IMG/VR virus record: IMGVR_UViG_2751185958_000012
Origin: a virus
Taxonomy: Duplodnaviria > Heunggongvirae > Uroviricota > Caudoviricetes
Length of the DNA stretch: 6,929 bases
Reading direction: 5' to 3' (one strand)
Shown here in pieces: positions 6,225 to 6,929 of this stretch (position 1 is its first letter; the number at the start of each line of letters is the position of its first letter). Under the pieces are notes generated by a model. That model did no database searches and had not been told where the DNA came from. It saw only the letters and a program-made list of their open reading frames with translations. The position numbers were made by a program, and so were the translations under genes.

Positions 6225-6482
6225 ATGACCATGACAAAAGACGCTTTACAGTTTGGCATTGAGCCAGTTCGCATTACTGATACTGACAACATGCAGGTAA
6301 ACGAAGGTCTCCCGACTAACGCCGACCCTCAGGTCTATGCCTTCCAGTTAGCTAAGCTGGTGAAGACCATGCTCAATTCTGTACTTAAAGACGCTCAGGA
6401 TAACATTCCGTTCCCTGTAGAAGTCCTGCCGACCCGTAACAGCTTACCGACTCCAATCATTGCTCACACTCTGGCTGGGTGA
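6225..6482 (+). CDS. Hypothetical protein, 85 aa; probably a 5' gene fragment truncated by the downstream IS insertion
   Basis: AAGGAG at 6209-6214 upstream of ATG 6225. The stop codon TGA (6480-6482) coincides with the first three bases of the IS3-family terminal repeat TGAAGTGG. Confidence 0.5.
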   Translation: MTMTKDALQFGIEPVRITDTDNMQVNEGLPTNADPQVYAFQLAKLVKTMLNSVLKDAQDNIPFPVEVLPTRNSLPTPIIAHTLAG

Positions 6483-6929
6483 AGTGGTCAACAAAAACTG
6501 GCCACCGAGTTAGAGTTTTTCCAGTATCGATTTTCCGATTCGTTTGGGGTAACCCACCACCGGCATCCATTCGTTCTTCAGACTCCTGAAGAAGCGTTCC
6601 ATTGGGCTGTTATCCCAGCAGTTTCCGCGCCGGCTCATACTCTGTCTGATCTGGTATCGCCACAATAACTGCCGGAACTGCCTGCTCGTATAATGACTGC
6701 CCTGATCGCTGTGGAACATCACCCCGCCGGGCTTACCACGGGTTTCCCATGCCATTTCCAGCGCTTTCATGGTGAGCCTGCTGTCCGGCGAGAACGACAT
6801 GGCCCAGCCCACTGGTTTTCTTGCGAACAGGTCGAGAACAACGGCGAGGTACGCCCAGCGCTTACCCGTCCAGATACAGGTCACATCACCGCACCACACC
6901 TGATTTGGCTCGGTCACGGCGAACTGCCT
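6480..6929 (-). mobile_element. IS3-family insertion sequence (IS911/IS3-group-like), partial; one terminus at 6480, continues past the window edge
   Basis: Terminus TGAAGTGGTCAACAAAAACTGGCCACC (TG...CA ends typical of the IS3 family) lies 30 bp beyond the transposase stop. Encodes a DDE transposase on the minus strand. Confidence 0.8.
6510..6929 (-). CDS. IS3-family transposase OrfB (DDE integrase-like catalytic domain), C-terminal portion; N-terminus lies beyond the window
   Basis: Translation contains [11 protein letters not shown]...[19 protein letters not shown]...[10 protein letters not shown]...[20 protein letters not shown], characteristic of IS3-family OrfB including the D, D, E region. 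The ORF remains open to the window edge. Confidence 0.85.

Follow-up and report, generated by a model that had tools for sequence, protein, structure and literature searches.

The stretch of DNA considered here (the window: 6,929 nucleotides (nt), IMG/VR virus record IMGVR_UViG_2751185958_000012) carries part of a small integrative island that lies at a tRNA-Gly(CCC) gene. Behind the tRNA gene follow a tyrosine integrase, the anti-phage defence gene PD-T7-4, three promoter-like sites of the T7 group, a Rha/Ant-like regulator gene interrupted by one insertion sequence (IS), two small genes and, towards the right edge, an open reading frame of 85 amino acids (ORF 6225-6482; aa, amino acids) whose stop codon falls on the tip of a second IS (Table 1). 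Very probably, what is seen at this edge is an HK97-type capsid-like gene of a T7-promoter island, the island being presumed to be a satellite of K1F-like phages, which a copy of IS911 has split at codon 85.

The identity of the interrupting element follows from its end and from its transposase. From position 6480 the window reads TGAAGTGGTCAACAAAAACTGGCCACCGAGTTAGAG, base for base the right inverted repeat (IRR) of copies that RefSeq annotates as IS911 in Escherichia coli; the identity to these annotated copies extends over 6480-6515 and includes the 5'-TG start of IS3-type elements, and the 450 nt of the IS that lie within the window are 98–99% identical to them. On the minus strand, ORF 6510-6929, open at the window edge, matches the Pfam rve domain (E 2.4e-32, 112 bits) and the NCBIfam family transpos_IS3 (181 bits, cutoff 160), and is a DDE (rve) transposase of the IS3 type. 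IS911, a member of the IS3 family first isolated from Shigella dysenteriae, transposes by a copy-out/paste-in route, the intermediate being a circle whose junction holds a spacer of 3 bp. With it the window copy shares the identical IRR, the 450 nt of high identity and the rve/DDE transposase motif, whereas it differs by the loss of 91 bp near the 3' end of orfB and by flanks that do not form a perfect duplication. The initial annotation, made from the letters of the window and a list of its ORFs, had proposed that an IS terminal repeat begins at 6480 and provides the TGA that ends the 85-aa ORF, and had assigned the element to the IS3 family, pointing out a protein motif of its transposase; the first proposal is confirmed by the identity of the IRR, and the second by ORF 6510-6929, which carries that motif. 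The TGA at 6480-6482 is at once the stop codon of ORF 6225-6482 and the first three bases of the IRR, TGAAGTGGTCAACAAAAACTGGCCACC. Such an in-frame stop is not remarkable, because both tips of IS911 read 5'-TGA inward, so that in one third of insertions the tip itself terminates the ORF that was hit; a 10-codon stub of rha (4366-4397) likewise takes its stop from the IS629 derivative at 4395.

ORF 6225-6482, whose start is preceded at a distance of 8 nt by a Shine-Dalgarno sequence (AAGGAG), consists of the first 84 native codons of a gene of 328–329 codons, and this gene has been split, not deleted. Megablast of 5540-6482 gave matches in 309 of 5426 complete E. coli genomes (~6%), every one of which stops at 6477. 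The uninterrupted homologue that the initial annotation suggested seeking in related genomes is present in E. coli 14EC047 (329 codons) and in STEC711 (328 codons), and both are colinear with the window up to 6477; in the DNA alignment the common sequence ends ...CTCTGGCTG, after which the window continues GG-TGAAGTGG... and the intact genes ACCGCTCTGTG.... Its suspicion that the gene is truncated was well founded. Excision in silico of the IS together with the GGG triplet gives an uninterrupted ORF of 329 codons; the IS911 is therefore the only lesion in the gene, and the clean ORF argues for a fairly recent event, not for long decay. The insertion of IS911 into the capsid-like gene is thus probably a simple and recent insertional split. 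The coincidence of stop codon and IS tip could also be read to mean that the 85-aa ORF is a complete small gene at whose natural stop the IS merely landed, a reading to which we give practically no weight. Homologues with intact context all run on in frame for a further 244–245 codons, full-length homologues all measure 312–358 aa, and among the relatives no homologue was found that ends naturally at codon 85 without an adjacent IS, a case that would have counted against the initial proposal of a truncation; the short relatives are contig-end partials, labelled as such, or other interrupted copies. The aspartate at position 85 (GAC) is invariant in the family, and in its place the window has glycine and a stop. 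Alignment to the intact genes and the excision in silico together refute the 85-aa ORF as a complete gene.

The far side of the element can be read in three sister assemblies of Shigella boydii (CP026814, CP026797 and UAUR01000003), all of them close to the window, which reach past the IS. In all three a full IS911 of 1248–1249 bp, with the left inverted repeat (IRL) TGAAGTGGCACACTGAAT and a 389-aa fused product, is followed by the rest of the gene: the IRL end reads …GTGTGCCACTTCA, and GACCGCTCTGTGCTGG... begins directly after it. The other 245 codons, beyond the ~1.25-kb IS911, are annotated in the sister assemblies as an ORF of 241 aa; an E. coli copy of IS911 is annotated ‘programmed frameshift’ (orfA/orfB). 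Over 6558 nt CP026814 and the window agree in every base, and the exact 85-aa protein is present on 52 contigs, named Shigella boydii. A search for the exact pattern of the gene/IS junction gave no match in species-representative genomes, a set in which Shigella is collapsed into E. coli. Two observations count against a simple split: the window ends inside the IS, with the split visible only in the sister assemblies, and the IS is flanked by GGG on the left and GAC on the right, where a perfect 3-bp duplication would show one triplet twice.

An insertion accompanied by an adjacent deletion, in which the remainder of the gene would have been lost here and the IS would abut unrelated DNA, has a precedent in the same gene. 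E. coli E166 (L001 8380-9700) carries an independent IS911-like insertion, annotated ISEc52, in the same orientation and 46 bp further into the gene, and there ~530 bp of the capsid-like gene are missing on the IRL side. The far side of the IS moreover lies beyond the window end, and the window copy differs from those of the sister assemblies by a 91-bp deletion. Yet the remainder of the gene stands right after the IRL in three of the three sister assemblies that extend past the IS, one of which is the assembly identical to the window over 6558 nt, and we regard loss of the remainder in the window's own genome as highly improbable. The ISEc52 of E166 adjoins gene sequence (CCTGAAGT) that resembles an IS tip, and a tendency of IS911 to insert beside sequences resembling IS ends has been alluded to (PMC3299598). 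In the simple split, an integrative island of 6.4 kb at tRNA-Gly(CCC) of S. boydii received IS911 in its last gene, at codon 85 (GAC), with the transposase of the IS on the strand opposite to the gene and with the right tip, TGA-AGTGG, in frame by chance; translation would then end after 84 native codons and one glycine, and the 245 remaining codons, moved 1.25 kb downstream without a start signal, would leave a split pseudogene.

The initial annotation had proposed a look beyond the window for the other IS end and for a target-site duplication. The other end is present, as the IRL of the sister assemblies. IS911 duplicates 3 bp, or in rare cases 4 bp, of its target; exactly three extra bases are found here, the left triplet being GGG and the right one (L006 11504-11506, in a sister assembly) GAC, the codon of Asp85. 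Recombination between IS911 copies as the cause of this mismatch was rejected, because the two flanks belong, in colinear order, to a single gene. Two substitutions after the insertion could account for it. More speculatively, GGG may be a circle-junction spacer of 3 nt carried over from the donor: in the pathway of the IS3 family, 2–4 bp of donor flank stand as a spacer between the abutted ends (PMC3299598), and the geometry fits this idea because the spacer would sit 5' of TGAAGTGG on the gene strand.

Relative to IS911 of E. coli, and to this junction as it stands in five other assemblies, the IS911 of the window is missing 91 bp; the gap lies between two direct repeats of 10 bp, GTAACCCACC (6549-6558). 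The last ~54 residues of OrfB are replaced by an out-of-frame tail of 12 residues, the catalytic D and E being retained in the visible part of the protein; the altered C-terminus probably impairs the transposase. The deletion was not seen as a single piece among the 10 best E. coli matches listed, and its junction had no match in the species-representative genomes, with Shigella again collapsed into E. coli. There is an appreciable chance, if the lesser one, that the deletion is an artefact of assembly or stems from another IS911 copy of the genome, given that all five other assemblies of the junction are without it, that both searches failed to find it elsewhere, and that multicopy elements, IS1 and IS911, stand at the two edges of the window, a common situation in draft contigs. 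On the other hand, the break falls exactly between the direct repeats, as is characteristic of slippage during replication, and repeats of 10 bp do not cause assemblers to jump.

The other IS within the island is of a different type, as the initial annotation had recognised: IS629-type copies match its first 237 nt at 100% identity, and the two insertions are independent events. Its description as a fragment needs correction, in that both tips are kept along with a perfect 3-bp duplication, AAC, at 4392-4394 and 4635-4637 (within GTCATTAAC, followed by CTCGACC, of the intact gene), and the element is an IS629 that has undergone internal deletion, at a GGCGGT microhomology. Positions 4395-4634 are absent in E166 and STEC711. 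Downstream, the chimeric ORF has Pfam matches to HTH_Tnp_1 at residues 1-64 and to Phage_pRha at residues 70-160, and the intact rha gene has a PHROG match to the anti-repressor Ant. Two IS events at such close quarters had first been taken to suggest an old, decaying element. This is not borne out, given the clean ORF that excision restores and an IS density that is high all around the locus: in S. boydii there are IS1 copies on both sides, and in UAUR01000003 (L005) an extra IS66 sits in the DUF4145 gene. Because the density is high around the whole S. boydii locus, the two hits are better attributed to the Shigella-wide expansion of IS elements, and they are doubtful as evidence of the age of the island. 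At the left boundary, E. coli homology to the window begins at position 97; the window starts in an IS1 end and stops in IS911, as does typically a draft contig whose ends fall in multicopy repeats. The IS911 event is, in sum, routine Shigella IS biology that is already present in public S. boydii genomes.

The product of the intact gene is predicted to be a major-capsid-like protein of the HK97 fold, which comprises an N-arm, an E-loop, a spine helix with P-domain and an A-domain. AlphaFold2 gave a model of the 329-aa protein with a predicted local distance difference test (pLDDT) score of 81 and a predicted template modelling (pTM) score of 0.76 when 40 relatives were aligned; with 11 close homologues the pLDDT was 36, and the model became confident only once distant homologues were added. 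Relatives are few, an exhaustive profile search through 1.84 billion representatives having returned only 66. At E<=1e-3, Foldseek matched the model to 197 structures of the PDB and 188 of BFVD; the 50 top hits listed per library are nearly all capsid or head proteins, joined in the PDB by encapsulins, with a probability of 1.0, and the matches include capsids of phi29, T5, mycobacteriophage Douge and several T7-like phages. In UniRef, the intact protein already bears the name ‘Phage major capsid protein’ in one entry. Among 10 distant homologues none had a match to a curated capsid family; some have C-terminal Big_2/Ig domains, which are frequent in phage structural proteins, and no other match. 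The 85-aa product, a disordered N-arm and the first helix in the model, would be unable to form a capsomer.

The capsid-like gene does not travel singly. A gene of 135–163 aa lies directly upstream of it in L002, L003 and L013-L015, and in distant relatives, at 24–32% identity, the pair of small gene and capsid-like gene is found again in an integrase-bearing context. Because the pair recurs in distant integrase-bearing contexts, the capsid-like gene is to be counted as a core gene of the island family. The initial annotation had called the interrupted gene cargo; the actual cargo is PD-T7-4, at 2787-3446. The 163-aa protein, for which profile searches (Pfam, PHROG, NCBIfam, PADLOC and PDB sequences) gave no match, may have a scaffold-like role.

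The promoter-like sites connect the island with a particular group of phages. The core CACTATAGGG occurs in three exact copies on the same strand between PD-T7-4 and rha, where 0.33 copies would be expected even with one mismatch allowed, and the three sites P1 to P3 lie within 608 nt, upstream of rha and of the 63-aa, 163-aa and capsid-like genes. From -8 to +6, P2 is identical to the T7 consensus, TAATACGACTCACTATAGGGAGA. The 17-mer AACTATCACTATAGGGA is found several times per contig, on one strand, in IMG/VR phage contigs of 39–40 kb, and the version of these phages, GGACTAAACTATCACTATAGGGAGA, matches the island over 25 nt. One matching contig is Escherichia phage vB_EcoP_F, and several of its closest relatives are named Kayfunavirus in the database; these are K1F-like phages. 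Against 50,697 phage genomes, no stretch of the intact island other than the promoter showed any DNA similarity. In tblastn searches against Kayfunavirus-type contigs the capsid-like and 163-aa proteins had no phage homologue; the only matches came from two IMG/VR contigs in which the island itself is present. The promoter motif is conserved in the E. coli islands, and three distant islands have a repeated promoter-like motif of their own on the gene strand, for example TAATTCCTACCACTATAGGGAGA, present four times in L015. Judged from these motifs, the type of promoter changes with the lineage of the island, as expected if each lineage follows its own phage.

The other features are given in Table 1. 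In the chromosomal flank, ORF 121-900 was first considered as NlpD, an assignment that was rejected in favour of ActS/YgeR on the strength of the E. coli annotation. The 17-nt att repeat at the end of the tRNA gene recurs at L006 12687-12703, and in a 22-nt version at L003 9085-9106; as it recurs ~430 bp past the split gene, the island measures 6.35 kb in STEC711 and 7.9 kb in S. boydii. The match of PD-T7-4 to its PADLOC model covers residues 1-209 of 211 model positions, that is, the full length, and the overlap of the gene with the integrase stop amounts to 8 nt. Its discoverers noted the same context, an overlap with an integrase gene being frequent for PD-T7-4 (Vassallo preprint, bioRxiv 10.1101/2022.05.12.491691). 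Between the DUF4145 and rha/ant-like genes lies a stretch of 920 nt without a confidently annotated gene; within it, at 3495-4365 (~870 nt), an ORF of 60 aa (3846-4028) is called in some assemblies only. Replication origins of T7 are promoter-associated, and the stretch at 3495-4365 could hold a putative replication origin or packaging signal. A conserved small hairpin, GTCCCT-11 nt-AGGGAC, stands between the 163-aa and capsid-like genes at 6170-6192 and might be a putative site of RNA processing or regulation. No ORF or domain of the size of an RNA polymerase was found in the window (ORF list, Pfam). In E. coli 14EC047 (L002 3000-9000) a related island carries the same pair of 163-aa and capsid-like genes and two promoter-like sites, with a different integrase, and sits elsewhere, within the ynfE/ynfF selenate reductase region; this suggests an exchange of modules between islands.

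Table 1. Coordinates of the features in the window (position 1 is its first nucleotide).
Feature	Position	Strand	Remarks
IS1 end	1..96	.	left window boundary; ends ...GTTGGCAGCATCACC; inside IS1 genes of sister locus L006
actS (ygeR), amidase activator, chromosomal flank	145..900	+	Pfam LysM and Peptidase_M23; annotated actS in E. coli
tRNA-Gly(CCC)	979..1052	+	ARAGORN; last 17 nt (1036-1052), TCCCTTCGCCCGCTCCA, are attL
Tyrosine integrase, intact	1187..2794	+	Pfam Phage_integrase, E 3.8e-18
PD-T7-4 anti-phage defence gene (DUF4145), intact	2787..3446	+	PADLOC E 2.7e-102; Pfam DUF4145
Promoter-like site P1, T7 group	3443..3465	+	ATAAAACCCACACTATAGGGGGA; conserved in L001 and L003
Promoter-like site P2, T7 group	3472..3494	+	ACTAAACTATCACTATAGGGAGA; with two upstream G's, 25/25 identical to Kayfunavirus promoters
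Promoter-like site P3, T7 group	4028..4050	+	ACTAAACTATCACTATAGGGACC
Internally deleted IS629, 240 bp	4395..4634	+	tips TGAACCGCC...GGCGGTTCA; AAC duplication; 10 codons into the rha/ant-like gene
Chimeric ORF, 295 aa	4449..5336	+	IS629 orfA N-terminus (62 codons) in frame with Rha/Ant-like remainder (native 4635-5336)
63-aa island gene	5338..5529	+	called in all sister assemblies; no family match
163-aa protein, charged helical C-terminal half	5650..6141	+	a gene of this size always precedes the capsid-like gene; no family match
N-terminal part of predicted HK97-fold major-capsid-like gene	6225..6476	+	84 codons, N-arm and first helix; alignment, AlphaFold2, Foldseek
GGG triplet, left target-duplication position	6477..6479	+	right copy in sister assemblies is GAC (Asp85 codon)
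IS911 right end	6480..6929	-	IRR starts at 6480; 3' part of orfB at 6510-6929

Islands of this kind are not new as such. In 2006 Chen and Schneider reportedly described, in Nucleic Acids Res, islands of enterobacteria with tandem T7-like promoters, suggested for them a life as satellites of T7-like phages, and are said to have found no recognisable structural proteins in them. Their defining features were reportedly two to three tandem promoters of the T7 group within 150–620 nt on the gene strand, an upstream integrase, the absence of a phage RNA polymerase gene, terminal repeats of 17–24 bp and a size of 4–13 kb. With such islands, that of the window shares its three same-strand promoter-like sites within 608 nt, its upstream integrase, the absence of an RNA polymerase gene, end repeats of 17 nt and a size within the range (6.4 kb, or 7.9 kb with its IS elements), whereas it adds a last gene with a predicted HK97 fold, PD-T7-4 and promoters of the Kayfunavirus type. 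The HK97 fold, the identity of PD-T7-4 and the assignment to Kayfunavirus appear to be additions to the description of 2006, and the recognition of a capsid gene in T7-promoter islands appears to be new. In the literature searched, there was neither an experimental follow-up of T7-promoter islands nor a demonstrated satellite of T7-like phages.

Two further groups of elements invite comparison. Firstly, capsid-forming PICIs (cf-PICIs) and the ‘mini viral entities’ (bioRxiv 10.1101/2025.06.18.659913) have in common with the island a small integrase-bearing element, a predicted HK97 shell protein, a small protein encoded upstream of it and a lack of tail genes. The island of the window differs from cf-PICIs in being much smaller and in having no portal, protease, head-tail connector, small terminase, RepA or helicase, and its promoters of the T7 group are not a reported feature of either. 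Secondly, the island resembles satellites of the P4 type in its integrase, its defence gene, its Ant/Rha-like regulator and its presumed dependence on a helper, whereas homologues of the P4 primase, Sid, Psu and Delta are absent from it; its presumed helper would be a virulent podophage, to which it would be linked by mimicry of promoters and not by protein transactivation. P4-type satellites carry defence cargo and depend on a helper phage.

Taken as a whole, these features can be read as those of a minimal 6.4-kb satellite of virulent K1F-like podophages with a capsid of its own, domesticated by IS elements in S. boydii, a reading that we put forward tentatively and short of even odds. The RNA polymerase of the helper would read the three mimicked promoters, by which the late module of the island would normally be transcribed; this would switch on the Rha/Ant-like regulator, the scaffold-like protein and a private HK97 capsid protein, and the last of these would build small shells for the island genome. 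The T7-type promoters might double as a replication origin, which would explain the absence of a replication gene. In S. boydii, IS911 and the IS629 derivative should disable this phage-responsive late module, with the capsid-like gene and rha presumably non-functional, and the island would be ‘domesticated’ in the sense of a defence-only remnant, its mobility and late module dead and its integrase and PD-T7-4 kept intact.

Several results weigh against a capsid that serves a satellite. The TM-scores of the Foldseek matches are modest (0.30–0.46), and encapsulins score as well as capsids in the PDB. The 329-aa protein has no match in Pfam, PHROG, NCBIfam, PADLOC or the PDB sequences, and no portal, terminase or replication gene was found in the island (ORF list, Pfam and PHROG). 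That a helper would induce, replicate and package the island is suggested indirectly by the identity of its promoters to those of Kayfunavirus, apart from which the island has no DNA similarity to phages. It is conceivable, if rather unlikely, that the capsid-like protein is not for packaging the island at all and instead forms a shell of the encapsulin type, or acts as a phage-triggered decoy that poisons the assembly of K1F-like capsids. Such a role would sit well with the encapsulins among the best structural matches, with an island that has no portal, terminase or replication genes and does have a bona fide defence gene, and with the small integrase elements in gut metagenomes that have only a capsid and a scaffold and no packaging genes (bioRxiv 10.1101/2025.06.18.659913). 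Opposed to it is the recurrence of the capsid-like and upstream genes as a pair in integrase contexts down to 24–32% identity; in two of these recurrences att-type repeats enclose a small island, as would suit a mobile element dependent on the pair for its spread. The cargo enzymes typical of encapsulin operons are absent. Interference and transfer, furthermore, go together in known satellites, and the two readings are not exclusive.

As for what the locus means, the IS911 event itself is of little weight, being one more pseudogene from the IS expansion typical of Shigella. Of greater interest is the island that it struck: a family for which a role as satellites of T7-like phages was reportedly predicted in 2006 encodes a predicted HK97-fold capsid protein of its own, and the member in the window also carries the validated defence gene PD-T7-4. 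The promoter match names Kayfunavirus as a concrete candidate helper, so that the satellite hypothesis is open to a direct test on an intact copy of the island from E. coli, alongside which the S. boydii copy would stand as a natural capsid-minus, rha-disrupted mutant.

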